42,156 nucleotides of DNA from Asterionella formosa (Eukaryota), in contig NKIB01014603.1 of assembly GCA_002256025.1 (NCBI GenBank), positions 1-42,156 on the forward strand, given 5' to 3'. Below, piece by piece: positions 535-40,429 of this stretch. The translations under genes and the position numbers were made by a program. The notes below the pieces were generated by a model, which saw only the letters and a list, made by a program, of their open reading frames with translations, did not search any database and had not been told where the DNA came from. Numbering within the stretch: position 1 is the stretch's first letter; each line of letters opens with the position of its first letter.

Positions 535-561
535 AGTAGCCATACCTGGTGTTGGGCAATT

Positions 562-906: not shown

Positions 907-915
907 AAGATTAAC

Positions 916-4982: not shown

Positions 4983-5565
4983 GCTGACTACCAACTTCAA
5001 CTTGCTGACTGTGGACTTCTTGTTGCTAACTGCTGTAAAAATTGGCAGAAAATTTGAAATATTTGCTGACTACTGACATGCATTTGCTGACTGCTAACTT
5101 CAACATGCTGATGTCAAGCAACCTACTTTGTACACAGGAAGAGACCAACTACCGGTACCAGTGTACGAATCGTGTTTACTTTTCATATTTGAATAACGAT
5201 GGAAACGCATCTTTCCGTTATTGGGATACTAAACACAATGCCTTCCATGTGCATAGTACTACCTGGTACCGGGAGTAACACAGAGGTTCCTGGTACTCCA
5301 TACATGATTAAACTGTGAAATAGCTAGACATAGATGCCTGAAAAAATTAATACTATGTATCTACTTCTTCATATTGCTACCATGATGTACTATCGTAAAA
5401 ATGATGACTTCAACTTGCTAACTACTGACTGCAGACTTCGTTTCGCTGACTGCTGACTTGATTCGCTGCAATTTTGAAAAAATCGCTGACTGCTGACTTC
5501 TTTTGCTGACTGCTGACATGAAATTGCTGACTGCTGAATTCAACTTACTAACTACTGACTTCAAG
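4983..5565. repeat. Degenerate ~21-bp tandem repeats (GCTGACTGCTGACTTCAACTT-like) in two blocks, about 4983-5130 and 5405-5565
   Basis: Repeated gctgactgctgac/gctaactactgac units seen directly. Confidence 0.8.
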
Positions 5566-5863
5566 TTCATTTTGACAATAAAACGACTAACGGCTTAACG
5601 TCTATCTAAGCAACTATTTGAAGAATAACGGAGTAGCGCAAAATTTAGGGGTTCGATAATTTTGGGGGGTTTACCCCTGCCTTTTCTTGTATGTGAATCG
5701 ATGAACAGAAAACGAGCAACTTGCACGCTATGTGCATTGATTACCGGACCTTCCAGTACATATTATATTCTTTACCTGGAACAGGTACCAGGTACAGTGC
5801 TGAAGGCAATTCCCGCTCCAGCTATCGTCTTGCCATTCGGGTATTTCTACAAAGTAATTTTTA

Positions 5864-8707
5864 GGCTCTAAGTAATTTTTATTTAGGGGCAAAATGGGCC
5901 ACATCGAGTTTTTCGGCAAAAATTGCCGATTTTAGGAGGACAGCCAGAATAACGGTAAAATACATAGAAATGGTACAACAAGCGCAAACACACGAGAATG
6001 ATTGTAACATACAACACCAATGAAAATTGAACATGCATGATGTTTGGAGCAACCAAAGTATGAAATGCGATGGAATAAGTAGCGTCAAATGAGAAATAGA
6101 AAAAATTGTTTTGGGTTAGAAATGAGGAAGTAAAAAATAGGAGTTTCAATGGAGACGTATGCACTGTGACATTGTAGTACTTACACAGGTAGCATTGACT
6201 TTCCATCACCACACAATCAAAGACCGAAATAAGAAAAAAAAAGCTGAACCCAAGAATTTAGAACTGCATCGTTATGTAGCGTAGATGATCTTGTTGCTGC
6301 AACCATGCACATCGCTGTAGTAGCCTGACACAAGTTGCACCAGTCCTTCCGCCCACAGTCGTTCCTCCCACCAAACAACCCTGATCATCATTCCATTCCA
6401 ATCCATTCTGATTGAGTATAATCGCCAGGCTGCTCCAGCACTTTCGACTCCCTCTCGCTGAATATACGTAGCTTGTGATACGATCTCGTAGTAGAAATGT
6501 AGCAAAGAGCGTTAGTACAAGAAAGGCATTGCTTGGCGGCAATATTGAAATCATTGTCAACAACTATACAAATCAACAAATACGATCAACAACACAATAC
6601 ATTGTCAAAGAGTAGTCAACGACAAATACATTGGTTCTCATGTAAATAGATACAATCGAAACAAAAAGACAGTGCGGAACAACAAACAACGATAGAAGCG
6701 ATCAAAATGGACCATGGAAGCAAGCAATCAAATCGGAAATTCGACAATCGTATCTATGATCAAATTCAGTGCATGACAAATGTAGTACTCACCGATCCGC
6801 TCTAACAAGCGTAACATGCAGCAGACGATGGGCTCATAGGAAAGTCGAAAGTTCCTGTTGTAAGCCCGAATTGAGCAACGGCAGGCAGGATTGAGTGAGA
6901 ATTATAATTGTGAGGACGAAATCGGGCATACGGTACATAAAATCAATCAATATGTGAACGATATAATTTAACATTCTGGTCTCATAAAATTAATACCGAG
7001 TCTACATAGATAACATTATAACGTGCTCAAAGTAAGCGTTAAAGTTTAGCTTAAACCATGCATGGTTGTTTTCAGTACCACGCACGTATGTAGGCTAGAT
7101 GACTACTGATACCGGTAGAATATCCGTTAAGCATCATCACATGCATGACCTGAGCAAAAACTTGCCACCAACATCAGATGTATCGATATATGTAGAGTTT
7201 TTTGATTATTCAATCCTGCAATCGCCCATCATATAAAACATATTTTGTGTATTTCATATGCTCTGTTTTTGGACTGCAAAACTACCTTAAATATTTTCAA
7301 TAGCCCGCTGTTCAAAAAAATAGCATTGTTTCTGCAGGTTAGTCTATCTAATCACAATTATTTTTATTACTTCATTATCGTAAATTGACAATGACAATGC
7401 GAACCAGAAGCCACTTCTGGTACCCTACTGAAAGAGCCATGAGAAACAACTCCCAAGTGGACAACTGGAATCATCAAACCGCGCCTGTTGTCTTGTTGGT
7501 TAGTTCATTATGAGATGTTCTGTTGGTTGTTGTTGTTTAGTCGCTTCCATGTGAGTCACGGCAATACCAATAATCCAACTATATTATTTTCCACATAGAA
7601 CATCTTGACAATGTATATCTTACTCACAATCCAAATATCCAAGGAGCCAGCATCACATTTTTTCCTTCCAGTTATAGCTGCAATGTCCCTAATGTCTCAA
7701 AAAAATTCCAAGCAGTGGTAAGTTCTGTTGATTGTTTCATATACTTGCTTCCATTCGTCTGCTGTGAAACTCAATACCTTTAGTAATTTACTCCAGTTCA
7801 CATTGTCGAACAAGAATCGCCAGTTGGAACATTCCACCAGCCAAACAAGCAGCAACTGAATGATTTCCAAAACAATATTGGAATCATTATGACCTACATC
7901 ATTTGCGCCACCAACACGACTTTCAATGTACCATGTTCCAGCAACACACCACACCCAAGAACGCAATTGACAAGTCAGGTTGATTGCCATCCCCATTTAA
8001 TTTCTTCTTGAGTGAACCCTACTGTGATTGAATTATGTGACTCCATCGCTGTATACAATCACATTTTCTACCATGATGATGATCTTGATCCCGTTCCTTG
8101 CTTGAAAGTTCATCCATCCGGGCGGGTCATCTTTCTCCTTCTCCTACAATATAGAAACTTTCACACCACACTGATGCCACCAAAGTTTACAATCATGCCG
8201 GTGCTCCTTGCTTCCTCCACAACCACCACAAGTCACAGTTCTTCCAGCACCATTGCCTGCCGAGCTGGTTGAACTATTGGTTGCTGCTTCTCCAGGCCTG
8301 ATTGAACATTTCATTATTATGCTTTGACGACATGAAAGAAGTGTAAGTTGGCGATTGTTGATGAACATGCATGGACAATTTTTCAAACAAATTTTCCACT
8401 AACTCAATTTCTTTTTCACTTTTTATTCTACTCCCTGATCGTCATTGTCACTTCTTAATTTTTGATTTCCATTTCATACTTTGGTTGCTTAAGAAATCAT
8501 CTAGAATTTTTTGATGCTTGTTACAATCATTCTTGTGTGACTATTTTTCATACATATTTGGGGATTCATCCATTTTTTGTGTGGCTGCTTTCGCATGAAA
8601 ATTCTACTCCTGACGTTGCTCGATGGTCCCTGCTCAAACCTAAAATTGATTGCCAAAAAATCCACTGTGCCCCATATTGCCCCTAAATAAAAATTACTTA
8701 GACACCC
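5864..8707. mobile_element. Putative non-autonomous TIR DNA element, about 2.85 kb
   Basis: 5867-5898 TCTAAGTAATTTTTATTTAGGGGCAAAATGGG matches the reverse complement of 8671-8702 at 31/32 positions, with weaker similarity continuing inward. No recognisable transposase, and no TSD resolved. Confidence 0.6.
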
Positions 8708-8714
8708 ACAGTTC

Positions 8715-9330
8715 TCATCGAAAAGCAAGACGATAACTAGGGTGGGGGTTGAGGGATAGTTCCTCTGTTTCTAATTTTTCTTGGACATGCACACCATAAC
8801 ATGTATATGCAGAGGGGCTGTCAACCTCTTGATAAATATGGTTCCGAATCACAGCAAAAGGGAATACTTTGTACTCTACTCTCATTGCATGTGTCATAGA
8901 GGGCTTTAAATAAAGGTGCATGCCTTCATCAATGCCACACTTAAGGGGCTTTTTGCCCTTCGACTCATGCCATAGAATATTCCACAGACTGGCTCTCTGT
9001 ATTCCTTGCAAGAGTGCACAATCAGAGTCTTCCTGCATATGCATGTAGTCCTTATAATGGCCTCTCACAGATTATTCAAGTTATTCCTAAATTTGTAAAA
9101 GTCGAACTTGGTATTGGGGTTGCATATTGTACACAACATTTGCTGCGATGCTTGCTGAGACTGCACCACCAGACATGATGTCATCATGCTGTTGTCTCAT
9201 TGACATTGCTGAAAAGCACAAATCCTGTTCTTGGCGCATACCATGGACTTGAGCGCAGGCCTTCCATTCCAATACCAGCAACATCTCCTTGCAGTGGGAT
9301 TGCTCTCTGAGAAAACTTTCAAAATCAAAC
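8715..9330 (-). pseudogene. Decayed copy of a repeat-associated protein with KP....R.EY..F....R.HIYQE modules
   Basis: KPSMTHAMRVEYKVFPFAVIRNHIYQEV, plus a more decayed upstream module (AANVVYNMQPQY). Stops and frameshifts throughout. I recall the motif from multicopy diatom hypothetical proteins; not verified. Confidence 0.4.
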
Positions 9331-9952
9331 CACTTGAAGCACAGTATCCTTGTTGAGGTCACAAGTCAGTTTCGATGCATCCTTGACTTTTCCTTCACAC
9401 AATCTGTAACTCAAGCGTTATGATCATGTCGGCAGTTTCGACATTCTTGCTCAAACATTAACTTGGTAACATTCCGATTTCTAACGCAATCGTCACCATC
9501 TGTACACTGTCCTCAGGCCTTCCCTTATCGAGTCGTTGTTGGTGCAATAATGCTTTGATCAGCGGTGTTTGCCCCTCGTTGGCGTAAATAATGACCATAG
9601 AAGTTTGGTATCTTCTTGTGGTCAATGCTTCAACTCTATGTGCCTCCTCAAATTCTTTTTCCACTTCCAGAGACCATCACTTTTTTCAATTCATTGCATT
9701 GTATCCTCTCTTGTTTGAAAACTCGGACACAAATTAGAACTGGGGGGCGGGGGGGGGGTGCCGCACAAGAAATGGAAGAAAACAGTTCCAATTGCTGTTT
9801 CTCTTGAACAACGTGGACATGCATCTTTTCGTTGTGAGATGCATACTCAAGCGTTCCCTACTATTTTCAGGAGTAAAATAGAGGTAAAAAAACTATTAAA
9901 TAGACTATTAAATAGTCATTGCTATCAAATTATAATTTTGCTAGACTACATA

Positions 9953-10140
9953 GGAGAATGGCTTAATTGGTTAGCAAACCTTGCTCATGAAGTGGGGGGT
10001 TCGATTCCTGCATTCTCCCCCTGTCTTTCGTTTATGTAGTCCCTAGGGTTCCAGGGGGTGAGACTGACAAATAGACAGGTCCTATTGTACCATACAGATG
10101 AATAAAACCGGTACCAGGTACCAGGTACTAATTGGGCACA
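9953..10140 (+). mobile_element. tRNA-derived SINE, copy 1 (3'-truncated)
   Basis: A box TGGCTTAATTGG and B box GGTTCGATTCC, followed by the family body (CCTGTCTTT..TGTAGTCCCTAGGGTTC..GACAGGTCC..GAATAAAACCGGTAC). Confidence 0.8.
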
Positions 10141-10424
10141 CTTCGAAATTTAAAAAATATTATACCATGTGTATTATAACATAAATTATTGCACTCATAA
10201 CCCCAAAATTTGGTCAACACAAACACTAATTTTTTTACAGTTAGAAATAACAGTGCAAAATATAGAAATATGTTTATCCATGTTTGACTACATATGATTT
10301 CCCAGAATATTTCATGACTTGCGTGCTCATACCCGAAATGGCTTGCTCTCGCCAAAATAGGTACCTGATGGTAATATGCATGTATATGTACACATCAATC
10401 AGCCTTATGTATATTGTTCGTCAT

Positions 10425-11149
10425 CCTCTGTTTGCCCTCCTGAGGTTCAATACGCTAAGCAAGTATTCCGAAAAATAGAGGAAAGAGCAGATGCTAGTGG
10501 TGAAGTTGATTCTACGGACCTTGGGATAGAAGATGGCAACAATGTCAATGATGAATTCATGGTACTTGAGGACAGTCAAGACAATGCTGAAGCGGTTGAA
10601 ACTTCGGAAAGCTATACTGCAAATGCCTCTGATTTCATTGAAGCAACTCCTGCTCGTCCTGAAGCAACTCCTGCTGTTTCCGCTGGAGCAACTGTTGCAA
10701 TATCTGCTAGTGCAAGATTTCATTGTCCTATGGTATCCCCTTGGCTCAGGGATAAACCTTTGTCAAACAGTCTTGACAAAATATTGGCTCTAGTTTCAAC
10801 ACAATTGATTCAAAAAGCGGAAAAGAATGATAATATTCCAATGCAGATGCAAATGCAGCAACAGCAGCAACAGAACGTGATGAACATCATGATGATGTCA
10901 ATCATATCATCCATGTTGAACCATGGGACATCACAAACAACCACCTCAACTACCATTGTCGAAACCATTCAGGCCATGATGAATTAAATGATAGCTTCGA
11001 ATATGCTATCAATGCAGCAATTATTGCAATCTCCAAGCACAACAACGCCAAGTAAAAATGCACAACCATCTTCATCTGCATCCATAGAATTTCAAACCCC
11101 AAATGATAATGATGGTGACAACAAAAGCAGTAGTAGTGATGATGAATAA
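10425..11149 (+). pseudogene. 5'-truncated DUF6818-like (transposon accessory-type) protein remnant
   Basis: CPPEVQYAKQVFRKIEER followed by an acidic linker and a Q/M-rich tail. Coding-like sequence continues past the TAA ending at 10987. Family call is from memory of the CP..V..AK....I motif. Confidence 0.4.
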
Positions 11150-11906
11150 GTTAAATGAAGATAGTAAATCTAAGTCTTTAAAACATTACTCTATGACTAA
11201 AAATGCATATCTGTTAGCACTTCTATGCAAATAGGGCATGTAAACCGAAGCAATTTGATTCTGACCGACTTTACTGGCACAAAAATTGTATAGTAAAACA
11301 ATCATTAGGAGTACAGACACATGTACATATATTTTGTACATAACCTGATACATATCACATGTCTTCAACCTGTACTCGATTCACAACACACAACAGAACT
11401 CAACATATGTATGCCTTGTGAATAGTAGCTGATCCATTTCTCCTTACAAACACCTATTGAATACTTCTTTAGCTGCACACAAGGATTACCTAAAATGCAT
11501 AAGCTCATTATGTTCAACAAATACTACTGGTACCGGTATACTGGCTTGTAGGAGTCATACCTGGTGCGGAGTACGGTAGGAGTGGTCCCTGGATGCTAGC
11601 TACGTATATTTTCAACGTACGTAGTAGGAACCATCGCCCGTCTTCTACCGCAACTCCACTGGCACCTGGTACCAGGGCAGGGCAGTACCAGGTACCGCCA
11701 AGCAAATGGTATTAAATTTCGAGCAACAAAAAAAAGCGAGCGAAGGGAAATCAACCGCCTTGCTTGTCGTGGTATGTATTTTTTTGAACTTGGCACAAGT
11801 TCAACACTTCAAGGAATCTTTCTCTTATACCGGGTAGTGGAACAGGTTAACCGGTAAAGAACCCAACGTATAGAGAATAGGTATCAGTGACGAACAAGTT
11901 GATGCC

Positions 11907-14306: not shown

Positions 14307-15019
14307 TTGTGATTCGACACAGGATCCCTGCTTGCACTTTCGAAATCTCATACTTCTTTTGTCAAGCATCCCTTTCGGTCCATGGCCTTTTAGCAGGAGA
14401 AAGTGAGCAGCATGAAAATTAAGAAGCTTATCTTCTCAATTTTTCATAACTTTAATGAGGTACCGTGCCTTCCTCGTTACATTCTATTGAGTTTCAGTCT
14501 CGTCACGTGATGCAAAATAGAATGAATATTTGCTGCAGTGATGGAAATAGGGTTTGGTATTATGATGGGAACCAATGCTCTTATCTCCTCCGCATCATAC
14601 AAGTATGCAACAATCTACGTTCGCGAAGTAATTGTTTCTCTGGTCTTTTCTGGATAGACTCTACCAACCACCATATTTTGTATTAGGGGTACCATGGCTG
14701 GCTATATACATTCATCAAGGTACTTGGTAATCATGCAACATTTTCTACCGAACAAAACTGATACCATACACTGGGAATCCGGGAAAGTCCAAATCTATCC
14801 CTATTCTTTGAAACTCGTTCGTGCAGGTAGGAATGCCCTCATCATGGTCACTGTCAGTAGCCTGTCAGTGTCATGGTAGAGGCCGACCTGGCATGCATAT
14901 GAAGGGATCAGGTTTATGACTAGACCTAGTAAATAGGGAGTCTTATGGTTGGAACTCAAGGTACCAGGACCAGGTACAACCGGCTACTAGGTATGGTCAT
15001 CAACCCAACACCAGTCAAG

Positions 15020-16200
15020 GTCATGATATGAATAGTATTCCCACTCATTTCAAGATGCTCCTTGTACAAGGTAGTAACTTCTGCTTGCTTTTACTTCCAT
15101 TTCGACACATAATTCACTCCTTGCATGACAGCATGGCTTCTTGAAACTATGAGATGATCTATCTAACAGCAAACAAATAGTACCATTGAATTTTCTGGGT
15201 TACATTCCCAACTCTTTAAGCCTACATTGGCAGACTGTAGCACTGCGCCGACACTTGTCATTTATCATGTCCTCCTAGGACACTTCCACTCCCTTTGCTT
15301 ACTCATCCTCCACTCTTATTCATGCCCAACATGCTCTGTGAGACCTGCTGGTCACTCCACAGCAAAAATCAGTCAAATTTACCAGCTCCATCCTGCGAAA
15401 ACAAATTTTGCCTACTTTCTACACCTGTCACAGCAATTTCCTCAAACAAATGCTTATTCCTCTTCCCATGACTTTTCTGTCCCTCTCTACTACTTCCAAT
15501 TCTCTCATATTCACCTGGAAGACCCCTAGACTCTCTGGAAATTCCAAGAAATTGTTTTCTATTGCTCACACTCTCTCCCATCAGACACCAAAGAAGGCAC
15601 TAGCAGGAATATCACTTTCCTCTGTTCTCCCTACTGCATTGACAATCCAAGAGTCTTCTCTCTTGACTTGCTCCAAATCCACCATTGGCTAATCTACCAT
15701 CGGCTTCATCATTTCATCAAGTATTTTAGATTTATTTATTGTCTAAACCTGTCACCAGTCTAATTTCAGTCAATTACACCTCAGAACAAGTCGATGCCAG
15801 CACTGTCAAGCAAGACCTCCCTTCCAGCAAAAATATGCTTCCATCCCTTCTTTATTTCTTCTATCCTTTTGATTACCAGCAATTAAAAAGTACTTCAGTA
15901 CGCAAGCGTCAAGAATTCCTTTAGCTATAAATTTATTTTGGCTGCAGCATTTCATTCATCCAAAGCATATTGATACCTTTTTATCGATTCTAGCTTCATG
16001 CTATTTTTCCCACTCTCACCACTCTCTCTTTCTACTGATACCATGCATCAACTATCTCTTAAAGTATTTCTCCAACCCTGATTCAAAGCTTTTTTGTCAA
16101 CTCCTGTTGTCAGTGCTATCACCTACTGCTATTCTTACTTCTCCCCTCACTCATTACCACATGTTATCTGACTATGTACACACCTATTAGCTACAGTTAC
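15020..16200 (-). mobile_element. Possible highly decayed non-LTR retrotransposon fragment
   Basis: Purine-rich, stop-riddled coding-like sequence on the minus strand, with a WKCPRR segment reminiscent of LINE C-terminal zinc knuckles. Weak evidence. Confidence 0.25.
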
Positions 16201-16560
16201 AAAAAAATAAAAAAATTCTCCTCTTATTCTAAGAGCCACATGGGCAGAACTTGGTAGCTTGTACTAGACTTGATTGTTGATACCACTACTGTAAAACCCG
16301 CTGTCCTGAATGTACACAGCCAAGATTGATTTTACGTAGATAGAAGGGCTACGACACCATGCCAGCCCTTTTTAATTGCCAAACATTATGAACAAACCAT
16401 CTTCAACACCATTTTTTACTTAGTCTAAAACATAAATAAAATCATCAAAAGAGATATTGTTTTAGGTTCAAACAGTTTCTGAGATCAATTGAACTTCCAT
16501 TTTTGGTGCACTGGCGCTCCCAAATTATGCACTACAGCTGCTGGGATCATGATAGTAGAT

Positions 16561-16793
16561 TTTTTTAATTAAATTTTATAGTACATTAAAGCTATTCAAT
16601 AATTGCACTCGGGCCCACCAAATAGATGGACACAATTAGTACCGGTTTTATTCGTCTGTACGGTACAACGGGACCTGTCTTTTCGTCAGCCACACACCCC
16701 AGAACCCTAGGGACTAAATGAAAAAGACAGGTGGAGAATGCAGGAATCGAACCCGCCACCACAGTGGGTGTGCTAACCACTAAGCCATTCCCC
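16561..16793 (-). mobile_element. tRNA-derived SINE, copy 2 (full length)
   Basis: A/B boxes, short A tail, and a perfect 20-bp TSD CTGGGATCATGATAGTAGAT at 16541-16560 and 16793-16812. Confidence 0.92.
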
Positions 16794-17162
16794 TGGGATC
16801 ATGATAGTAGATATTGAGGTCAGCCAGTTAAATTTCGCGTTATTATCAACATGACAGCCAAGAAATATCGATGCATCAGGCAGAATACGCATGGTACTAT
16901 GCCGAAAAATATCAAGGGCACCACCAAAGCATTTACAGTCCATCACAATCAGATCCATAGCTTGAAGTGAGTGTTGCTGGATGATGAATTGCTGGGGGTT
17001 CAGGCAGTGGTGCTGGCCAAGGTTCCCATTCAAGAAGAATTATTCCTTCAGAGACAGGTATTTCTAGAAAAAGCGCTCAGCACCTAGGCCGCTCCCCCAA
17101 AAGTACTGCTGACTTCGAAGAGTTGAAGGTTATATTTTACTAGTAGTGGCTACAAGATACTA

Positions 17163-17404
17163 TGGGAACGGCTTAGTGGTGAGCACACATGTTGCGGTGG
17201 CAGGTTCGATTCCTGTATTCTCCACCTGTCGTTCTTTCATGTAGTCACTAGGGTTCTAGGGTGAGTGGCTGACAAGGAGACATGTCCCATTGTTGTACCA
17301 TACAGACGAGTAAAACCTGCACTAATTGTGTCCATTTATTCATTTATTTTGGGTATGAGTGCAATTATTGGATAGCTTTAACGTACTATAAGATTTGATT
17401 TTTT
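17163..17404 (+). mobile_element. tRNA-derived SINE, copy 3 (full length)
   Basis: A/B boxes and a 17-bp TSD GTGGCT(A/C)CAAGATACTA at 17146-17162 and 17405-17421 (one mismatch). Confidence 0.9.
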
Positions 17405-17465
17405 GTGGCTCCAAGATACTAGGGCCTCTACTACTACCATAATGCTCAGTGTTGAGCTGAAGAGG

Positions 17466-18250
17466 ACCCCCAGGGAAAGAAAATGGTGTGTCTCTGAAGG
17501 CACTTTGCCCTAAGCTGCTTGGGTGATCTAATCCAAACGTGTTCAGGGCATATGAAAAGAGTGAGCTATGTTTGCTTGCTGGGTAAATTTCATCTTGGAA
17601 AGGGGCATTTGATAACACTTGAGGCTGCATGGACCATTATGACTTGTTACCTTTCTTGGCTTACACTTGAGGGTAATTTTGTTCATTCACTAATCTAGCT
17701 TTGTTAAATCTTATGGGATACAGCTTACTAGAGCATAAGTCTTGGTTTCGTCTAGGTGTCCCTTTAACCATTAGGGAATCAATATATGAGACCCTACTCA
17801 AGATCAGACATTGTATTGAGTGGTCTGAAGGGCTTTTCAACCCAAATCTTGGTTCGATACTGATATATTCATGCAATGGATTGAAAATGTTTGGAAACCA
17901 TTTACTCCACTAGTAAGCAAAGGAGGAGATCCAACTCAACTCACAATGAATGACTTTTCAATCCATAAGGTTTGACAGTGTGTGGATGCATTTAAAAATT
18001 GCAGAACTGAAGTGGACTACATTCTTCCAGACTACATTCCAGACGTAGTAGGGGTCAAAAATTGTTTAAGGACTACATCAGGGGATACTGAGAAGATCAA
18101 ATGGTCAACAAATTGGACAACAGAAGAGGAGTCTAAAGGCATGACATTGGTTGCTCTGTGATACTCCAGAGTCACAGCACAAACAATCACCAATATCTGG
18201 AGGAGCATTGGGTTTGGGGGCTTTGCTAGTGAGAACAAGTCAATTAGTAA
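17466..18250 (-). mobile_element. Possible non-LTR retrotransposon RNase H-like fragment
   Basis: Not homologous to pogo copy 1. The minus strand has KGHLDETKTY, resembling the VKGHQD RNase H motif. Many stops. Confidence 0.3.
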
Positions 18251-18261
18251 AACATTTGATC

Positions 18262-18498
18262 TTTTTGTCAATTAAATCTTATAGTACATTAAAGCTTTCC
18301 AATAATCGCACTTGTGCCCAAATATATGGAAAAAATTACTAGTACCGTCTTTATTCGTCCGTAAGGTACAACGGGACGTGTCTCCTTGTCAGCCACTCAC
18401 CCTAGAACCCTAGTGACTACATGAAAGAACGACAGGTGGAGAATGCAGGAATCGAATCTGCCACCTCATGAGGTGTGCTTACCACTAATCCATTCCCC
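18262..18498 (-). mobile_element. tRNA-derived SINE, copy 4 (full length)
   Basis: A/B-box head and family body. Degenerate TSD AAACATT(T/C)GATC at 18250-18261 and 18501-18512. Confidence 0.88.
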
Positions 18499-18659
18499 TT
18501 AAACATTCGATCATTTGATTTTACTTCAAAACGTAGTGGAACAATCATTATTGTCGTTTAGATTAATGATAGCAAAGTCTATTAAAATAAAAAAACATTT
18601 TGAAATGAAGCAAGAATGATAGTTTTGAAAATGTTAAATTTCTAATAAGATTATTAATG

Positions 18660-19110
18660 TTCTCATGTAGATTGATTGAAGGACTTGAATTTTTGTCTTG
18701 TTTTTGTAACATCTGTTCCTAAATCAAAAAGTCCTTGAGACGCCGGAATGAACAAACTCCAAGGTTATTTTTGCTTTTTGCCATTTTGGTAGCTTTTTCA
18801 TTACAGTCATGCAGCTCAATGACTTGAGCAAAATTGATGACAAACCTGTCACTGGATTTCTCCAAAGCTGCAATGTTTTTTCCAAGAAAGCCAACCATGC
18901 ACAGCTCTGTCCCGCCCATCAAGTACCAGGACAGCCTTGATCCCTGCCTGATCACCTCCATCAATAGTATGCACCACTGAAGCATTGAACCTGACACATT
19001 CATTGGGCCTCACATTTGCCACACAACAGGCATGCTACTCACGACTTATTCCATTGGTAGTAACTCTGGGCCAATGATTTCGCCATGATGAATGTCATCC
19101 ACATTTGTCA
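18660..19110 (-). pseudogene. Second, convergent ORF of pogo-like copy 2
   Basis: Homologous to 562-906. The additional upstream part reads VDDIHHGEIIG..TNGISRE*HACC across a frameshift and a stop. Confidence 0.55.
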
Positions 19111-19208
19111 TGTAGTTTGTTGCTGCATGCTGTATATGTGAAGATACTTCACTTGTACCAGTAATATACAAAAATGCGAATCAATAAATAGAATTTAAGT
19201 TTCACTTA

Positions 19209-20872
19209 GAGCATCGCCACCGCATCGACCAAATACCAAGCCAATTGAAGTTGCGGGTCATTACACGTCATGATGCGTTGTGTTGGTCGAAAAAGCAAAA
19301 ATATTTTAGCCACCGCATCGACCAAGACCAAATATGCTTTGGTCTTGATCGAGGATGACCCCCTTATCGACCAAATATCAGGTATTTGGTCGATTAGACT
19401 CCGACTGTAGCCAAATAAAAGGAGCATTTCTATTGGTTTAGATTGTGGCTCGCGCCGGCAACATAACGTCAACTATTTAATTGATCCACAAACGCTTACA
19501 ATACACATTTACCTTACTCTCTTGATGTAGACAAATAATAAACTTAAGTACAAAAACCTTTGAATAATACCGGCAGCTATCTATAAAATGTTGTCCCTCG
19601 AGTCTTTGACGATCCCAATAAGATATCGTCATCCATTGTTGTCAAAGCAGCATGATACATGAGAAGGAGCAGCAGGAGCCGCAGGAGCAGCAGGAGCAGC
19701 AGGAGCAGCAGGAGCAGCAGGAGCAGCAGCCAACGAGGATGATTCATCGTTGGTTTCAGACAAAACCAAAGTTGGATTATTTTGGCGCTGTCAAGAGCAA
19801 CAATCGATAGCGATATGCGAGTTTCGTCAAGGCAGCATTGTTCCTCATGTACTGTGATGTGTCATTGTTGGCAGACTGCTGCATGTCCCTGGCTAGTATC
19901 GATATCTTCTTCCCTTGCATGCCATGGGTATATTGTGTAACATTTTACTGTGTCGATGGTTGATTAATCAGCCAAAGAATTTCAAAAATGTATCCAAGAG
20001 AGTTGTGCCATTTAATGAAGGGTTTCACGCCAATAAAGGCAATGCCATTTAATGGAAAAAATGAAGGAGGGATTAGATGTGATCCAATTGCATCTCAATA
20101 ATTCAAGTGCTTCCAGTACTCCACTGTCCCATCTGTCATCCACCACTGATGATTTTGATGTAGTAGATGATTCCAAATGAAGGAAAAATAATATAGATAA
20201 CATGTCATTGCTAGTATGATTGATTAGAAAGCTAGGCTATCGCTCTAGCTAATTGGAAAAACGGAAGGTTTTTCTATTCTAGAATACCAATATACAAATG
20301 CATAGTCATATTAGTTTTTAATGGGCAGTTTAGATAGGCGTAGTACTAGCTGCGTAAGAATAATGAAAAAAAAGGAAACGTGGTGCTACAACTATTCAAA
20401 AAACTACAGGTACAGACTACCAGTAGCTAAGCGACTTCCTTTTATCCTCCGCCTCCTCCTTCGGTTGCCTTTTCTCGTTTTCTTCTTGTATAGGTATGTT
20501 TAACTGGTATGTACGGAAGTGTAGGAGCGGTCGTCATCTGATGAGTCGCTATCGTTGCTCATTTCATCAGGCAGATACATATGGATGAGTACCCTGGTAT
20601 GCTACCACAAACCACGCAGTGCGTCCCATCATTTTCTTATTGGTAGTAATCGGGTTTATTAATATAACGATACACATGTATAACAGTCTAGTGCTATTTC
20701 TATTCGCTAAAAGTTTTGGCGCGAGGTTTGACTATTCTAGGATTTGGTCGATGCGGTGGGAAAAAATATGAAAAATTCGACTATTGATAAAAAATTTCTC
20801 AACCAAGTCACGTGTATTGATATTTTCAACTGCAATTGGCTTTGGTATTTGGTCGATGCGGTGGCGATGCTC
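19209..20872. mobile_element. PIF/Harbinger-type non-autonomous DNA transposon (1664 bp)
   Basis: TIR GAGCATCGCCACCGCATCGACCAAATACCAA(A)GCCAATTG at both ends. TTA TSD at 19206-19208 and 20873-20875. Subterminal repeats CCACCGCATCGACCAA at about 19310 and about 20745 (inverted). Confidence 0.9.
19665..19730. repeat. (GCAGGAGCA)n 9-bp tandem repeat, about 7 copies (poly-APA on the minus strand)
   Basis: Seen directly inside the Harbinger-type element. Confidence 0.9.
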
Positions 20873-21035
20873 TTATATCAAGCTCTTTTAAGACTACTCA
20901 TTTGCGAGACCGCGTAGCGCTTCTTGGCACTTCCAGCCCTTGATGTTCATGTACATATGTATACCGGTACTTAATTACCAACCCAGGGTCATCCGAACAA
21001 ACGTCGTGACTTCGGGCGCTGGTGTGCAAGGATCA

Positions 21036-21213
21036 GTACCTGGTACCTGGTACCGGTTTATCCTCTGTATGGTACAGCGGGGACCTGTCTTTTTAATTCA
21101 TTAGCCGCACCCCCGGAACCTTCGGGACTACAAAGAAAAAGAAAGACAGTCGGAGAATACAGGAATCGATCCTACCACCTATGAAGGTATGCTAACCAAC
21201 TAAGCGATCGTCC
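21036..21213 (-). mobile_element. tRNA-derived SINE, copy 5 (diverged, 3'-truncated)
   Basis: Reverse complement reads GCTTAGTTGGTTAGC..GGATCGATTCCTGTATTCTCC..TGTAGTCCC..GACAGGTCCC..TAAACCGGTACCAGGTACCAGGTAC. Confidence 0.8.
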
Positions 21214-22440
21214 TGCAAATTAAAAAATAGAATACTTCAATGCAATGGATGTGGCAGTTTTTTTAATAGCACAGATAATATATTTGGGAGTGTTGCGCCA
21301 GATGAACAAAGGGCGGATGTACTACTTTGTAAGCAACTATGGGAGACAGGACACCGGGTTTACGGTGCTACCACTACATAGCGATTCTAAGTAACTTTGA
21401 CACAATTACCATCTTGTATGTTTCGTCTTTCTCCATAGTATGTAGACCGTGTGGGATTGTAAGTAAATGTAGGAGTAAATTTGATGCGAACCGTAGAATA
21501 CTATAATAGCGAGCCAAGAATAACGCTAAGTATGCATCGTAAATGGCTTTTTGAGTTCATTGCTAAGTAATGTGTTCCATTCCCTAACTCCGGGTTCAGT
21601 CCGTGTCTTTACTCCGGGTTCTGCGGCAGTCGAGTTGCGCTTAGCTGACTATATATGGCAGATGGCTTGGCAATGCTTTAGACCGCTTCTCTGAATTGGC
21701 TTCAAAGAATTGTGCGCTTTGCCCCTGTACTATTTCGATGAAGATAACCTTGTGTGGTTGCTCTCTTCTCCTCTTGCATGAGCTGCTGGCTCTTGGTTGT
21801 TCAATTCAACTCTAAAAGCTAGATCTTAATAGTTGCATTGTCACTTTTTATGTCTCAGCTTCGACTCCTTCGATTCGGTTGCAAGATCATTTGTAATACT
21901 AGCTCGTCACTTGGCATCGCCCCCATTGCGTCCATCCTTGGACCAAAATACCGGTAGATCTGAACAGCATGATTGTACAGTCGAACATACGACATGTTCA
22001 GTAGTACTGGTATGGCAGTACACTGGTAAATAAAGTCTACCAGTAGACGTCAACAGTAAACGATTACCGGTACCGGTAGCTGGTGAAACATACCAGGTAC
22101 TAGCTAAGTACCACAGTCTGTATACCTTACTGTAATTGGTAGAATTAAACCCAAGTTGAATTTTCCTGTAGGCCTCTGGTATATGTATACTGGGTCATTT
22201 CAATACTGGCACGGTATTGATCTGAAAATACAAGTGGAAGGACCGTGTTACAACAGTATTTGCCAGTAGAAAACCCGGTTTAACTGTGGGGGTTTAATTA
22301 TTTGGTTTAATGAAACCTTGTAGGAACGTGCTACATGTAGTACTAGCTAGTACTACTCCAGTACTTCTACGCTGCTAAAAATTAAACCCATCACCATGAT
22401 GATTGATGGTGGGAGTGAATACTAAAATAAAGAGGTTTGG

Positions 22441-24260: not shown

Positions 24261-24606
24261 AAAATTGCAGTTACTAGCATACATGATTTTTTACATTAGC
24301 TACATTCATTGCTTGTGTTCACTTCATTTCCGGCATCATGTTGACATCATAGAATGGAAATACCCATAAAATGCGATTGAGTTGTTTGCCCGGTATGTAC
24401 CAAGGTACCTGGTATACCGGCAGCATTAGTAGTACCACCATCTCCCATATTTTTTGCAGAAAGAAAATACACGATGAAGCTAGCAGCAATGGTATGATCA
24501 TTGTCTCTAGCTTGTGCACGGTACCAGTACCAGGTTCTACCGGTAGTCAACTACTACTAGTAGCACTAGTAGCTTCCACAACGGGTTTAACTACGACTAC
24601 GTTCCC

Positions 24607-26276
24607 GTAATTGGTAAAATTACACCCAAGTTGTATTTTCCTGTAGGCCTCTGCTATGTGTCTACTGGGTCATTTTAATACTGCTGGCACGGTATTGATC
24701 TGAAAATACTAGTGGAAGCACCGTGTTACAACAGTATTAACCCGGTTTAACTGGGGGTTTAATTTTTTGGTTTAATTAAACCATAACCGTACGCACGATC
24801 ATCGTAGGAATATACACTGTACGAGAACATGAAATTAGCTATTACACTGTCATGGTACCGGTAGTACACACAAATTAAACCCCATCCTCATTCATTTACC
24901 ATTGGTACTTGGTAACTGGTACCAGGTACTCGGTATTTCGGTATGCAGCAGCGGTAAGGAGAGGAAGGTGTGACTGATGGGACACCAACAGCAGGTGAAG
25001 GAGGGAAGTATGAGCTGCCAGTTTGTTTTTGGAATTATAAACTTGGGTTGTACTCCCAGCAGATCGAGATGCAATGTCGCCTAGTTTTGAAACTAAGGTG
25101 GATGACATCAGCCAGTCGACTCTTGTCTTGAAGGAGTGTTGACTCCTGACTACTAGTTATTGGTGGTAGCAGGAGTGACAAGTATGCAGAATGATGATTG
25201 AGAGTCCAGAAATGCCTCAAATGTGGCGTTTGAAGAAGTTTTCGACAATTAACAAGTTGATGAACCAACAGAAATGATGCAGGATGTGTGTCAAAGAGGT
25301 AGGAGGGAGGAAGCAATTCTGTCAGCATTGCAGTCTTTCTGTTACACCAAAAACTATTTGTTCTTTGGTAGCAATGCAAAAAGTTGGAATTAGGTTTGTA
25401 AGGTGGCTGAAATTTTTACAAGGGTTGAGCAGGATATAGTAAGAAAGGTGGAGTATTGTTGCTTGGCAAAGCGTTGTGTGGGATATGATGACTGCCCTAC
25501 TTTGAGCTGCGTTTTTTTCACTGCCACATTGCAAATTGACAAAATGTATCAGGTATATATTCCAGAGAGAACAGTGCCACAGATTAGATTGCCAATCAAT
25601 TGAGGATATCTGCTGATCATCACACTGGTGGTCATACACAGCTAGTATGTGTTTAGGTTATTATTACACAGATGCATGATTTCATACAACTGTAGCTACA
25701 TTATTTTTTCACTATTTTTCATTTGCTATATATTGATTGTTTTCACTTCATTTCGGGTATATGTGTATTAGACATATACACCCACCCCTATAATAAAAGA
25801 CTTGGTCCTCTATTTACTGTAATATAGTGCTATAGTATATGTACTCGTGGTGACTCCATATTAAGTACTAGGTACTCTAAATACATGAAATGGTCTATTC
25901 CCGCATTCACGTACCCTGGTACGGTACCTGTACCTGGTAACCTGGTAACCAGTCGATACGAGCAAATGGGCGCCGGTACTAGGTACTGGTACCTGGTACC
26001 ACAACCGGTATTGTCGCTAAGAATAGCTTTGTGCACTGTACTGGAGTACTAGTAAACTACTAGTGCTAGCTTCCACTACGGGTTTAACTGGGAGTTTAAT
26101 TTTTTACGACTACCACCATCTCCTATATTTTTTGCAGAAAGAAAATACACGATGACGCTAGCAGCAATGGTATGATCATTGTCTCTAGCTTGTGCACGGT
26201 ACCAGTGCCAGGTTCTACCGGTAGTCAACTACTAACACTAGCTTCCACAACGGGTTTAACTACGACTACGTTCCCG
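24607..26276 (+). mobile_element. Crypton-like unit 2 (shorter, more diverged)
   Basis: Block A' at 24607-24782, C-terminal remnant AEIFTRVE..FTA...IDKMYQVY at about 25400-25640, block B' at 26111-26276. Confidence 0.62.
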
Positions 26277-26485
26277 GTACCCGTACCCTGGTACCAGGAA
26301 CCAACCAGGTATGGTACCTGGTACAGGTAGATTGTTTTCTCTCATTCTTCTGGGCGGAGTACATAAGGATACGTGTATAACCATCATACGAGTACATATT
26401 ATTTCGAGATTGGCTGCTTCAGATGGTTTCATCACGATGTCCAGGCCAACTACAAATTTGTTGACTTTGCCTCCTTTCAGTTAAC

Positions 26486-31491: not shown

Positions 31492-32595
31492 ACTTCTGGC
31501 TTCAGCTAGTTTTGCGATTCAGAATTGACGGGTGAGATCAACGAACGATGCTACGCCCGTATCTTTCCAGGTTGTGCAATACGTCGGTGCAGCTACAGTC
31601 AGTTGAGTGAGGTTGTTGCGCCTGGTGCGTATTGTCTTATAGCTAAGGGGGTGTCGCAGAGACCAAACTGCCAATCGATGAGAGGGACGTGTTGCTGTGG
31701 TTGGTGATACAGTAAAGGGTGATGGTTTGGTGACGGGATTTGACAGAGGTATGAAACCAGCATGGTAAATCTGGTACGGTACCAGGTACCGGGTACCGTA
31801 TTATTGCTGAGATTTGAAGTTTTGGAATGCTGATGACGTACCTGATGATGCAAGCACACCCAGCAGTAGTACCTGGTACCTGGCACCAGGTACCGGTATG
31901 TTTTCTTTGGGTTCCTATAACTACATTATCCATACATGAGTACATGAAAAATTAACAATTTGCCCTTGCTTATTGGCTTGATACGCACCATCTACATACC
32001 GGTATGTACGGAGTACTCGGCATATGGATCGCTCCCACACATATCATACTCCCTCAATTTTTAATCATCATAAGGACATTTATACCGGTATACCAATAAT
32101 TGTTCCTTAGTATAATAATTACCGCTAACGTATAAACCATGCGTGCATACGTACGTGTGAAAATATGTAGGTAGTGTTTGAACACGAGTTGGGCGATTAC
32201 GATACCAGGGGTACCTGATAGTAAGTAGAGCACCAGAAGAATCAGGGAGGAAATTGGCGATGTGACGAGGATTCAAAAATACTGCATAAGGAACTCCTCC
32301 GTGTACGATGTTACATACTATCGTTGCGTTTACACATAGTTAGTATGTACAAATTAGGTTGTGACAAGAAGCTAGAAGATATGGTACGCACTTGGCGTAC
32401 ATGTAATGCATAAAAGAAACAGATGTGCTCCCAATGATAAATACCAGTACATGTCGTATGTAGAAATCCGACAGGTGTCAGGTGCAAGACATAGTTTTCA
32501 CACCATGACATGTGCTCCGTTGTTTTTGTATGAGCTATACTGTACAAATTAAGTGAAGATACCAGGTACCAGGTGGCGGAAAGCGATGTAGTTGA

Positions 32596-32646
32596 TGACG
32601 CAAGGAAGACGTCAGTGATTGTCATGCGCTGGTGATGCTCACGTCA
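32596..32646. promoter_or_regulatory. Cluster of three CCRE-like (TGACGT/C) motifs upstream of the double-domain theta-CA
   Basis: TGACGC at 32596-32601, ACGTCA at 32609-32614 and ACGTCA at 32641-32646; another TGACGT at 31834-31839. About 1.1 kb from the ATG, so function is uncertain. Confidence 0.3.
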
Positions 32647-33189: not shown

Positions 33190-33650
33190 CCCATCATATC
33201 TTGTCATGTAATTGAAGCAACTGAAGGGTGAGGAAGTGGTGGCACCATTGCAGTTGTAACTGGTAGACCTACTGCAGCGTGGCCATGCACCATGGTGTCA
33301 TGGTATCTGGTAAGTAGAAGTTGCTTCATTGTTGGTAATGGAAGATCGCCTGCTCGCTTGTACCACCAGTACCACGTTGCCATTGTTTTCGTTTGTGTCA
33401 CTGTCCACTCTGCAGGCTGTTTGTTTAGAGTTCTGATTGCATAAACCTTGTTTGCAAGCAAGCGCCGAGTGTGCATCTATTTTCTTATTCTCTCGCTCAC
33501 TCTGCACTTCTTCTTCCTGATGCCTCATGATCTCTTCTTGTCAGCTGGTCATCAACCACTTCAGGAGTTGAACTAGCTACCTGCCTGCAGTGACATGAAG
33601 ACCAGCTGTGTGTCGCTTAGTTCTTGCAATCGCCCTTAGGGCCAATACCA
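33190..33650 (-). pseudogene. Probable C-terminal fragment of a DNA transposase
   Basis: A K/E-rich stretch followed by KQPAEWTVTQ.K....W.KRAGDLPLPTMKQLLLTRY, a tail motif I associate with stramenopile DDE transposases. Frameshifted. Confidence 0.4.
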
Positions 33651-34612: not shown

Positions 34613-34634
34613 AACCCTACTTCGAAGTAGGGTT
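34613..34634. repeat. Perfect 22-bp palindrome
   Basis: AACCCTACTTCGAAGTAGGGTT equals its own reverse complement. Confidence 0.9.
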
Positions 34635-37016: not shown

Positions 37017-37088
37017 TCCGACATAGTATAGTGGCTAGTATCCCCGCCTGTCACGCGGGAGACCGGGGTTCGATTCCCCGTGTCGGAG
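37017..37088 (+). tRNA. tRNA-Asp (GTC)
   Basis: Acceptor stem TCCGACA/TGTCGGA plus discriminator G. Anticodon stem CCCGC/GCGGG with loop CTGTCAC. T arm CGGGG-TTCGATT-CCCCG. Downstream T run. Confidence 0.97.
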
Positions 37089-37963
37089 AGATCACGCGTT
37101 TTAATTATGGTAAAATTTGATTGATCGACGACTTTTTCTTTTATTACCTGTTTCAACTATTTCTCTTAGATTTCTTGACCAAATTGTACACAGTCAACGT
37201 GCAGACGAAAAGAGGATAGATGTTCTGGTAGGTTGCAGAGTATGGTGTAAGACCAATTATCATATATATCGTCTCCCGGTAGCAGGTGCCCTGGTACAAA
37301 ACCTTACATGATACCGGCACGAATAGCGGTGTGTGATGGGTTCAACAACCAGCGGAGATCCTTGCTGTGGTATTGGAACCTGGCGCTACCGGTAGGGTAC
37401 TCGAGCACTATGGTATGAAGTAAAAAGTATATACCGATTTGTAAATCATGTGACTTGAAAAAAGCTACTCCATACTCCCACCAGGTACCTGGTACCATGG
37501 TCCAGGTGTAGTAGGAATTATGAATACCGGTACCAGTACCGGTATGGTACGCACCTAGTAAGTATTCTCCAGAGTCCAGAGTACACAAGCACGTTTATGA
37601 AAGAGACTCACAGGGCTGACATTATATGTACATACTGGTTGGTACCTGGTCCCTGGTACCTGGTACTGAGTACCGGCCAAAGAAGTCGTCCCCTTTTTCC
37701 ACCGACCAGTTTTCTTATTCGGTATATTTGTTACTGCGGCATTTATGTAGCCCGGAGTCTTGCATTACCGCTTGGTTCTGTATTTATTTTCTTATTCAGG
37801 CACACCAACTTTCTTCCTTTCACGACAGCAGCGGTTTGAGCTCCGCGCATTTCATTAGAAGAGATTTGCAGGTTAATGCAGTCCCCTCGTGAACTGCCTG
37901 GAGGACGTGATATTTCTCTTTCACTTCTTATTTTTCCGATTGCATCACGTCCCATCAGCAGCG

Positions 37964-39528
37964 ATGTTTAGATTCCCCATGCAGGAAACAGTACCAGAGG
38001 ATACTAGCAGTGACCCCGACTATTTCGCAGGAGAAGCAGTACTGGTAGAAGGAGAAGGGGGTGCGCAGGGAGAGAATATTGAAGACGCAATGAAGGAGGA
38101 AGTCGCCACAGAAGTAAGTCGAAGAAATGAACTTGTCGAGCTTGCAACATGTTCCCTGCCGTTAAGTACGGGACCCTCACCACGCCATTCCTTTCAGGCC
38201 CCTGTACACACTACAGTACCAGCGCAACAGACAGTTGGCTGCACTTCACACGTTAAGAATCCAGCAATCCCAGCATTTTGGCGTTACGGAATCGTAGTGT
38301 ATTTGCTGGTAATTTTCTGTATCTTAGTAGCTTGTGATGTGGGATCGGGTGTTTCAGCCGAATACGTCCTGTTGAATCCCGACGGAACGATCTTCAAGCA
38401 GCGGTCATTGTTCCATGTTAGTATCTTCACTTCCGTAAAGAAACTATGGAATACTGGATCTTATCCTTTAGCGATCTTTATTGTTCTTACTTCCATCTCA
38501 TGGCCGTTCGTGAAATTGGGCTTGAGCTTGTTTTCTTGGGTGACGCCATTCACGAATGTAAAACGACGTGAGCGATTGCTTGAAGTGATTGATATGCTGG
38601 GAAAGTGGTCCTTTGTCGACATTTTTGTGCTCTTGATTATCATGGTGGCTTTTCGATCAAATCTTGAACTGGGTTTTGGAGGTATGTCAACCAAACTTCG
38701 CCTTCAAAACAATTTCATTCAAGGTCAACTGTTCCTTCTATACTTACATGTGCTTTCTTCGCAGTCGTTCTTGAGATTGTCATCGTTCCTCGCTGGGGCT
38801 TGTACGGATTTGTGGCGGCCAGCATGCTGTCTATTCTTGGAACCCACAAAATCTTATTCTTTCACCGACGCCTGCAGTATCACAATGAGGACGGCTCAGT
38901 TAAAGACATTATAACCGAAACCGATCAACTCTATTCCAGCCCAGAAAAGGATACCCTGGCAAAAGAAACAAAGGTATCAATACCAGTGATACTTGCTTTG
39001 CTCATCAGTTCATGCGCGCTACTTATTGCCGCATTTGCGATTGATATTTATGAAGTTACTGCAGAACGACCCGAGGGTACAACTTCAGAGGCATATTCTA
39101 TTCTCCGAGTCGGATTGGACTTGCCACCATCAGCCCTTGAACCTAATAGCATCGGAACTCGATGGATCCAACTCATGTTCTTTTTATTCCTTCTTGCATT
39201 TCCTATGTGCAATGTATTGCTCTTTGGTACACTCTATCTGTATCCCATGACCAAGGCACTGCGTGAACGAGTTTTTCTTCTTGCGGAAATTTCTTTCAGT
39301 TGGACATGTGTTGAAGTTTTTATGGGGTCTGCCATCTTCAGTGTCTTGCAAATTCCCAAGTTTGGAAACGGTCTTATCGATGCTGGTTGCCCACAATGTT
39401 TCAAGGTCGGGTCCAAGATATTGCCAGCCTTCTCAATTTTGGTAATAGCGTCTGTGGTGCAAATCTCGGTAAATGTGTGGCTATTCCGAAAGGCTCATAG
39501 GGCTGTATATCCAATGGTTCAAAGCTAA
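37964..39528 (+). CDS. Paraquat-inducible protein A (PqiA)-domain multi-pass membrane protein; exons 37964-38681 and 38765-39528 (493 aa)
   Basis: SIFTSVKKLW..GSYPLAIFI...S..WPFVKL and LGKWSFVDIF motifs, with a second repeat (FSWTCVEVF). An 83-bp intron GTATGT..CTTAC..GCAG (38682-38764) joins the two ORFs in frame. The start could alternatively be ATG 37979. Confidence 0.88.
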
Positions 39529-39777
39529 TTTGGTTTGGCTTTCGGCTTGTGTATGATACTGAAGTTCCATATCAATCAACTGTCGTTCTAGCCTAGTATC
39601 TTTTTATCCAACCCAATCTATGTCAAATAGTGACTACCTCAATTGGAGGCAGGTTCAACATGCAGCACATGCTGCATCTAATAACAGAACATGCGATTCC
39701 CATCGCCTGACTTCAGGTACAGTCATACCAAGCTCAATGCAGAAAATGACCAAGGCATACCTCAACTTAACAGCATT

Positions 39778-39835
39778 GGGGGGGGGGGGGGGGGCCCCGT
39801 TTAAAAAACAAAAAAAAANNNNNNNNNNCCCACAC

Positions 39836-39868
<33 letters not shown>

Positions 39869-39885
39869 CGCCGCCCCCCCCCCCA
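39778..39885. other. Assembly gap (10 N at 39819-39828) with low-quality homopolymer flanks
   Basis: N run flanked by poly-G, poly-A and poly-C. Confidence 0.95.
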
Positions 39886-40429
39886 CGATTTCATAACCAA
39901 AAAAACTCTGCAGAGAGCATACCTGAAAACATTTTGCTTGTATAAAACCATTTCATTTCTTGCGTGAGAGCTTTCATAACTAGCCATAAGTCCATGCATG
40001 AATCGAGCGCATTTACATGGTACATAGCTAGCAGCATACCTGATATTCATTTATGATGGTACCTGGTACCTTGTGGCTGAAGGCTTGTTACTATCAGTGA
40101 GATAAAGAGCAACATAGGGTGTTGTTGCACCTGAAGTTGAGCATTCTGTAGGTTTCAGCATCACTACTGTTACTCAGCAAATAGGCTACTTTATATCAAC
40201 ATAAAAGAATTAACATGAAGATTGACATGAAAATTAAAATCAAGAGTAACATTAACATTAACCCTTTTTAGCCAAGTATAAAGGCAAGTTGAATAAGGAC
40301 TTACATAGTTTGTTGCCAAGAATGGTTCGCCTGCTCCTGTATTTCCTAAGAACATCTATGTCGCTTATTTCTTGGACAACACTGTCATAAAAGCGACTTT
40401 TAGGGCTTGCAAGAAGGCAAGGATAAGGT

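Follow-up and report, generated by a model that had tools for sequence, protein, structure and literature searches.

The window and its repeats

The stretch analysed here is contig NKIB01014603.1 of the Asterionella formosa assembly GCA_002256025.1 (positions 1 to 42,156; hereafter the window), which comprises 32.7 kb of non-coding DNA and 9.5 kb of coding sequence (CDS). Its genes, a set suggestive of a diatom, encode two LCIB-type carbonic anhydrases, two proteins with an alginate-lyase domain and one with a PqiA domain, and its non-coding DNA carries short interspersed elements (SINEs), decayed pogo-type transposons and recurrent GGTACC-rich runs. An earlier note on this DNA had described these runs as (GGTACCW)n expansions arising genome-wide by sequence-directed insertion or micro-duplication, or else marking a dispersed protein-binding or methylation signal. 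We found that the runs are real and genome-wide, and that they are better read as units of the form TA-CCWGG-TA (W being A or T), with an equally common sister, TA-CCGG-TA. These units are inserted words and are probably the excision footprints of pogo-type transposons whose ends start with CCA or CCG. The features of the window that bear on this reading are as follows:

541..2195, minus strand: decayed copy of a CCG-ended pogo (DDE_1) element, candidate maker of CCGG units
4669..5794: CCGG and CCWGG units clustered upstream of an LCIB-type carbonic anhydrase gene, 3451-4569 (minus strand)
7110..7117: TA-CCGG-TA unit in a repeat with empty paralogues
9952..10132, plus strand: SINE copy 1, subfamily A
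10112..10127, plus strand: two stacked TA-CCAGG-TA units in SINE copy 1 (A); the 61 other readable A copies are plain
11531..11836: unit cluster upstream of the alginate-lyase-domain gene 11907-14306 (plus strand)
14960..14977: degenerate CCAGG pair, among the places given in the earlier note
16287..21316, plus strand: second decayed CCG-ended pogo copy, in pieces, broken up by SINE copies 2-5
16560..16800, minus strand: SINE copy 2, plain, with a direct repeat on its flanks (target duplication)
17153..17400, plus strand: SINE copy 3, plain
18263..18499, minus strand: SINE copy 4, plain
20962..20969: TA-CCGG-TA unit within SINE copy 5, in its body; related copies lack it
21037..21052, minus strand: stacked pair of units, reading CCAGG on the SINE strand, in SINE copy 5 (subfamily B); 28 further readable B copies are plain
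22065..22099: a stacked CCGG pair together with one CCAGG unit
24398..24928: units within a non-coding block that is duplicated locally
25912..26323: dense unit cluster, decayed in part, upstream of the second gene with an alginate-lyase domain, 26486-28858 (plus strand)
31780..32090: units clustered upstream of the gene for the double LCIB-type carbonic anhydrase, 29560-31491 (minus strand)
33279..33452, minus strand: remnant of the C-terminal portion of a CCA-ended family's putative transposase
37387..37665: units clustered upstream of the gene with a PqiA domain, 37889-39528 (plus strand, two frames)
40060..40068: single CCTGG unit; context GG-TA-CC

Two classes of TA-bounded units

The non-coding part of the window contains 42 occurrences of GGTACC, against 10.4 expected under an order-2 Markov model, so that the k-mer comparison suggested in the earlier note bears out its enrichment. 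The word TACCAGGTA (both strands) is found there 20 times and the sister unit TACCGGTA 21 times (0.5 expected), and none of the three occurs in a CDS. The motif is present at all 14 places that had been cited for it; however, the runs are shorter than a description as repeated heptamers implies, perfect TA-bounded CCWGG pairs being confined to 10112-10127 and 21037-21052, and most of the other runs being single or degenerate units. The 6-base sister unit TA-CCGG-TA had been overlooked, as had the match, described below, between the inserted words and the ends of resident transposons.

The absence of the motif from the five CDSs of the window is likewise correct but not significant by itself, synonymous shuffles predicting 1.6 occurrences of GGTACC (P(0) = 0.17). 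Avoidance of coding DNA is clear only in a sample of 60 stretches (599 kb) from 20 other contigs, a non-random set for which 12 contigs were chosen via repeat-hit lists and 8 via a list of matches to the motif GGTACCAGGTACC. In this sample the long frames (183 kb) contain TACCWGGTA only twice, whereas the remaining 416 kb contain it 268 times, a density ~58x higher outside than inside open reading frames (ORFs), whereas bare CCWGG differs only 1.5x. Across the assembly (68.4 Mb in 15,436 contigs), GGTACCAGGTACC has 9,910 matches (4,889 + 5,021) and its reversed control five (3 + 2).

Among the TA-bounded words of the sample, CCGG (246 observed/4.9 expected) and CCWGG (270/5.5) are the best enriched, followed by CCAG (152/23), CCAGGG (30/1.0) and CCSGG (24/1.8). 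TA-CTAG-TA is enriched about 4x, has filled and empty pairs too (L005, L067, L080 and window position 18337), and may be the scar of a candidate CT-ended family. CCGG units show decay of the CpG type, their commonest variant being the CpG-transition neighbour TACCAGTA (n=152). A derivation of CCWGG from CCCGG by the same kind of decay was rejected because the mirror product, CCCAG, is rare (6 vs 270).

Arrays in the sample and the window together are short: 383 consist of a single unit, 60 of two, and 16 are longer. Multi-unit arrays are pure in 28 and mixed in W in 27 of 55 cases; adjacent units carry the same W in 41 of 69 pairs and a different one in 28 (p 0.15 against an even split). Ordinary slippage, as in micro- and minisatellites, explains the pure runs, up to the 10 identical units in L184. 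However, slippage can neither create a first unit nor produce mixed W; the first units are not duplications of their flanks, and the 28 unlike pairs mean that pure slippage alone would not give such arrays. Since there are mixed arrays as well as the 10-unit pure run, both repeated events and slippage act on arrays, the latter lengthening some of them.

Units are inserted words

Out of 617 distinct unit-bearing sites in the DNA analysed, 94 have a paralogue with unique flanks, and 64 of these are informative. At 42 of the 64 we found an empty paralogue of exactly the expected length, with a single TA kept in 38, while the other 22 are filled in every paralogue seen. Control words were empty at 231 of 1,196 (TA-N4-TA) and 142 of 1,068 sites (TA-N5-TA), which gives the background of the method (13-19%) and Fisher p values of 8e-15 and 4e-20, respectively. 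As only one of the 42 events is a tandem duplication, the units are inserted words rather than local copies. Local tandem duplication was accordingly rejected as their origin and with it the micro-duplication invoked in the earlier note, whereas its sequence-directed insertion acting genome-wide is supported by the genome counts and the filled/empty sites alike.

The two unit classes differ in where they were gained. The same 6-base word was added at 27 CCGG sites with varied flanks and no local template (G/C neighbours at 13 of 54 positions), whereas the 15 CCWGG events are mostly in G-TA-C (23 of 30; p 7e-6 vs CCGG). At L035:2381 and L145:1519 a C precedes the TA, and these two sites fit duplication of TA around a 5-base core, not duplication of GTAC around a 3-base core.

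The SINEs provide an internal control. The contrast drawn from the window alone, with copy 2 plain and copies 1 and 5 expanded, was borne out, and among 100 distinct copies of both subfamilies the site is readable in 92, being plain in 89 and expanded in three. Inheritance of the expansion as a subfamily trait was rejected: copy 5 (subfamily B) has a different 3' body from copy 1 (subfamily A), ranks only 52 of 91 by identity to it, and the kin of both are mostly plain; many further events lie outside SINEs. The insert was not copied from the adjacent 7 bases. In an anchored genome-wide search only copies 1 and 5 and L185, which has one unit where copy 5 has its pair, were expanded at this SINE site, and L183 was expanded elsewhere. 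Two of the three expanded copies are 11 kb apart with an identical 14-base gain and may be linked by local conversion or local hopping; their independence is thus doubtful, and we do not count them as separate events.

The SINE family itself (window 9952-21214, L002-L091) has at least two subfamilies with a common 5' part and distinct 3' bodies; a single query returned 735 candidates, and A and B copies stand in tandem at some loci (L088, L091). Tandem duplications of 3-4 bases are frequent in copies L010-L060, many of them at TA-containing triplets, and ACT-class triplets are the commonest 3-base indels in SINE copies (166/930).

Resident transposons with matching ends and flanks

The DDE_1 (pogo) profile has 93 matches in the genome; a genome search for DDE_3 (Tc1-type transposase) gave no match, a result that does not establish its absence. 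Two of the pogo families are CCG-ended and combine a DDE_1 transposase, terminal inverted repeats (TIRs) and TA duplication. One, with copies 99-100% identical, reads TA|CCGTAAAACCTGG at both ends, has 105 exact ends and includes the two decayed copies of the window, and the second starts TA|CCGTATACTTCA; a third pogo family is CAG-ended. The pogo copy at 16287-21316 is split not only by SINEs but also by a 1.6-kb inverted-repeat element and so marks a nested insertion hotspot. A ~1.65-kb element with 47-base TIRs (96% complementary) lies at 19208-20873, and 53-base inverted repeats 2.7 kb apart at 5867-8702 are possibly an old DNA transposon.

The CCA-ended group includes a CCAC family whose end, TA|CCACYTAAAAACTG, has 420 matches. 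One copy, 738 bp long and with perfect TIRs of 20 bp, lies in GG-TA-CC next to a CCAGG unit. The ends of the family have a non-G before the TA (H-TA-C) in 50 cases and a non-C after it (TA-D) in 19 (p 2e-4), an asymmetry that favours duplication of TA over a 4- or 6-base one. A link between this family and the CAG-ended pogo was dropped, since the latter is inserted into a CCAC element. CCAG-ended sister elements (L147, L184, L024 and others) enclose ORF remnants of a family with 429 genome candidates. P0020, a database relative, matches these remnants with its own C-terminal part (E 3e-8 to 4e-8), and its first 145 residues resemble DDE_1 in language-model features (0.94) and predicted structure (TM 0.75). 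Pfam gave no hit for the remnant or for P0020, and the local pogo profile did not match P0020 significantly; for the remnant, a word-based homologue search found none among 732 candidates, a PDB search found none, and a first atlas query stayed below the bar. Two candidate autonomous elements are an open frame of 779 codons that belongs to the CCA-element protein family (G000:C14068:500-904, minus strand) and a 2.9-kb span between two CCA ends (G000:C1997:17287-20192).

The unit words correspond to the first and last bases of these elements, CCG apparently giving CCGG with CCSGG as a minor form, and CCA giving CCWGG. The flanks follow the same division. CCA ends are preceded by GG in 286 and by G in 370 of 420 cases, and next to CCWGG units position -1 is G in 77% and position -2 in 65% (G 69% and GG 39% once sides with a neighbouring unit are excluded). 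By contrast, GG precedes none of the 19 CCG ends with a readable flank and stands on 6% of the outer sides of CCGG units, against a background of 7%. CCG-ended families and CCGG units are therefore alike in being free of flank bias, while CCA ends and CCWGG units alike follow GG-TA.

A MITE that targets the arrays

An 88-bp miniature inverted-repeat transposable element (MITE) with ends CAAGTTGCGGT has 267 copies with both ends perfect (e.g., L142:1500-1595, L193-L212), and its left flank reads GGTAC-CWG in 13-17 of 20 copies per position. Read naively, its ends look like CCW...WGG between TAs, which would make it a candidate for the maker of the arrays. However, the left and the right flanking W agree in 15 of the 16 copies that are informative, with an exact 3-base repeat in 9 of 20, and for one element orientation it is A in 10 and T in 9 copies, i.e., independent of orientation; copies joined by a bare CWG also occur. 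Hence CWG is the target duplication of the MITE, which uses existing units as targets and needs a unit to be there beforehand. Once W had proved to be its target duplication we rejected the MITE as array maker, a reading that is already largely refuted and that we regard as extremely improbable. The NuwaI group of PHIS elements (PIF/Harbinger-related) likewise duplicates CWG, and its TIRs usually start with GGG (PMC4482050, as far as the consulted part goes). The TIRs of the 88-bp MITE start with CAAG instead, its host lies outside animals, and it exploits the arrays without making them.

Units lie upstream of genes

Within 1 kb of 87 long ORFs (67.7 kb upstream and 48.0 kb downstream), there are 102 CCWGG units upstream vs 26 downstream (2.8x, p 5e-7) and 104 vs 32 CCGG units (2.3x, p 2e-5); in the window itself 21 units lie upstream and one downstream of genes. 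Either insertion into open chromatin or selection could produce this bias. Because the units are 2.3-2.8x denser upstream, protein binding may be a later use of them.

The upstream excess also suits a promoter code in which ordinary mutation generates the words and selection retains them upstream of genes as protein-binding sites, and there is a parallel in another stramenopile. The Phytophthora promoter motifs M93 (TACATGTA) and M94 (TACCGGTA) are described in PMC3597505, and PsMyb37, a Myb protein, binds TACATGTA (PMC11134190). Like our units, these are TA-X-TA palindromes abundant upstream of genes, and M94 is the sister unit letter for letter; they are presented as transcription-factor sites, the string 'transpos' is absent from PMC3597505, and no CCWGG arrays appear in the portions consulted. 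Nevertheless, whole-word units were gained inside SINEs, MITEs and dead transposons, units decay, insertion into open chromatin would yield an equal bias, and selection may filter scars without making them. We therefore think it improbable that a promoter code explains the units.

The window contains two duplicated gene pairs: the LCIB-type carbonic anhydrases at 3451-4569 and 29560-31491 (one of them two-domain), and the alginate-lyase-domain pair at 11907-14306 and 26486-28858, ~80% identical in DNA. The array region at 25930-26080 has a 94% identical paralogue on another contig (L147:970-1160) with one extra TA-CCAG-TA unit, so that some arrays have spread by segmental copying. Upstream of the first carbonic anhydrase gene, 4980-5570 is a degenerate 7/21-base tandem repeat of the GCTGACT type, unrelated to the GGTACC units. 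At 39778-39884 poly-G and poly-C runs flank a 10-base N gap, likely an assembly junction.

Excision footprints as the probable origin of the units

Fixed words are inserted at TA, resident elements have ends matching these words, the flanks of units and ends agree class by class, and elements abut arrays. We consider it probable that the units are pogo-type excision footprints, that CCWGG scars double GG-TA-CC targets and that slippage extends some arrays. From these observations we infer excision as the source of the words, together with the overhangs, joining and ratchet that follow. A TA-duplicating pogo-type element (Tc1/mariner superfamily) would insert at a TA, duplicating it, and on excision would leave a few of its terminal bases between both TAs. 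The CCG-ended families would leave TA-CCGG-TA at almost any TA, either through 3-base overhangs annealing via CG or through filled-in 2-base overhangs, with CCSGG as a minor product. The CCA-ended families, which would prefer G-TA-C and best of all GG-TA-CC, would leave TA-CCWGG-TA, their unpairable CCA overhangs being joined with the loss of one base, so that A or T remains by chance. A CCWGG scar at GG-TA-CC would turn one preferred site into two, and a CCGG scar anywhere would create two half-sites. As each CCWGG scar would rebuild the preferred site, the CCA group could return to its own scars, insertion and excision would recur at one spot and stack (GGTACCW)n, and slippage would lengthen some of the resulting arrays.

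Footprints of this kind are known. Excision of Tc1/mariner elements involves 2-3-base 3' overhangs and leaves a footprint between duplicated TAs, Sleeping Beauty leaving C(A/T)G (PMC3878927; C(A/T)G+TA in PMC2874221), and the footprint core is quoted as 2-4 bp (PMC7913693), in the parts of these sources consulted. The units share with such footprints the duplicated TA around a word of terminal bases and the central A/T ambiguity; they differ in a 4- or 5-base core, in tens of thousands of fixed copies and in stacking via a rebuilt GG-TA-CC. For the Arabidopsis pogo-like Lemi1 and the Emigrant MITE, TIR bases at empty sites were read as footprints in two cases (PMC1636448, consulted in part). 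There too the elements are pogo-type and the empty sites carry TIR bases; what sets the units of A. formosa apart is a genome-wide word class with two end types of distinct target tastes. Footprints as such are known. In titles and abstract starts of open-licence PMC and bioRxiv papers we found no description of these arrays or of genome-wide stacked footprints, nor of scars fixed in comparable numbers or piling up because they restore their own target.

Several points weigh against an origin by excision. The three states (empty, with the element and scarred) were never seen together at one site, only empty/scarred pairs and elements abutting arrays. Of 38 candidate stretches from a metagenome scan for other strains, a single one coded for a relative (34% identity), and its flanks were not usable. 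The 5-base CCWGG core exceeds the quoted 2-4 bp, CCGG being within that range, and the CCA+CCA join is without tested precedent here. Extrapolation from the non-random sample puts each class at roughly 20-30 thousand units (28,000 and 31,000 as computed, which is probably too high), against ~500 counted intact ends, so that very many excisions would be needed. A CAG-ended pogo is present, yet TACWGTA is only mildly enriched (131 observed/97 expected). Template switching in near-palindromes could be another source of mixed W, and excisions in rice are mostly irregular (PMC4423477, in the part consulted), unlike the stereotyped units. The filled/empty test is lenient (controls 13-19%), and 42 overstates the number of independent events, since some of its sites belong to copies of a single repeat and the flanks of a few resemble arrays. 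The 50 vs 19 asymmetry of the CCAC ends could be inflated by later small insertions, and most targets are palindromic and cannot decide. Finally, the link of the CCA group to DDE_1 is indirect, resting on predicted similarity, and covers the CCAG-ended elements, not the CCAC family with its 420 ends.

Among the alternatives, the host could itself write CCGG and CCWGG at TA during replication or repair (palindrome template switching, polymerase-theta-like fill-in or slippage), transposons only sharing or exploiting the words. This would accord with the short tandem duplications common in SINE copies (251/930 three-base indels), with the pure arrays of up to 10 identical units and with the 41 of 69 adjacent pairs that share W. 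It leaves unexplained, however, how one 6-base word came to enter 27 sites whose flanks vary and offer no local template, why duplication accounts for a single event in 42, and why the two word classes follow two end classes in flank preference; we consider it unlikely. CCWGG and CCGG are also known contexts of cytosine methylation, and a methylation signal, or repair linked to it, might create or mark arrays built on these cores, in keeping with the CpG-type decay of CCGG units. Yet the enrichment depends on the flanking TAs, being ~58x for TACCWGGTA and 1.5x for bare CCWGG, and methylation does not insert fixed words, which makes it a very improbable cause. An assembly or library artefact might be suspected from a fragmented assembly of 15,436 contigs, from which alone the units were read, but an artefact would not account for units that are depleted in ORFs, concentrated upstream of them, eroded by point mutation, used as targets by a MITE and, at 22 of 64 sites, present in all paralogues seen, and we see next to no reason to believe in one.

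Implications

We propose, more tentatively than the excision origin itself and at somewhat less than even chances, a self-feeding ratchet in which transposon ends rebuild and double their own target at each excision and so write genome-wide repeats upstream of genes. A second family would seed half-sites for the process, and a third element, of an unrelated superfamily, would target the product. The arrays would then be a countable fossil record of transposition, and the TA-X-TA promoter palindromes of oomycetes, one of them Myb-bound, may be co-opted scars. Excision scars are usually regarded as rare and hard to read; if this proposal holds, they are the most over-represented 8-11-base words in the sampled DNA of this genome. 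They would constitute a source of tandem repeats that needs no slippage to start, and would testify to much more transposition than can be seen from the elements that survive. Moreover, they would offer a testable origin for the TA-flanked palindromes found as promoter motifs in stramenopiles, implying that such motifs can be mutational products.

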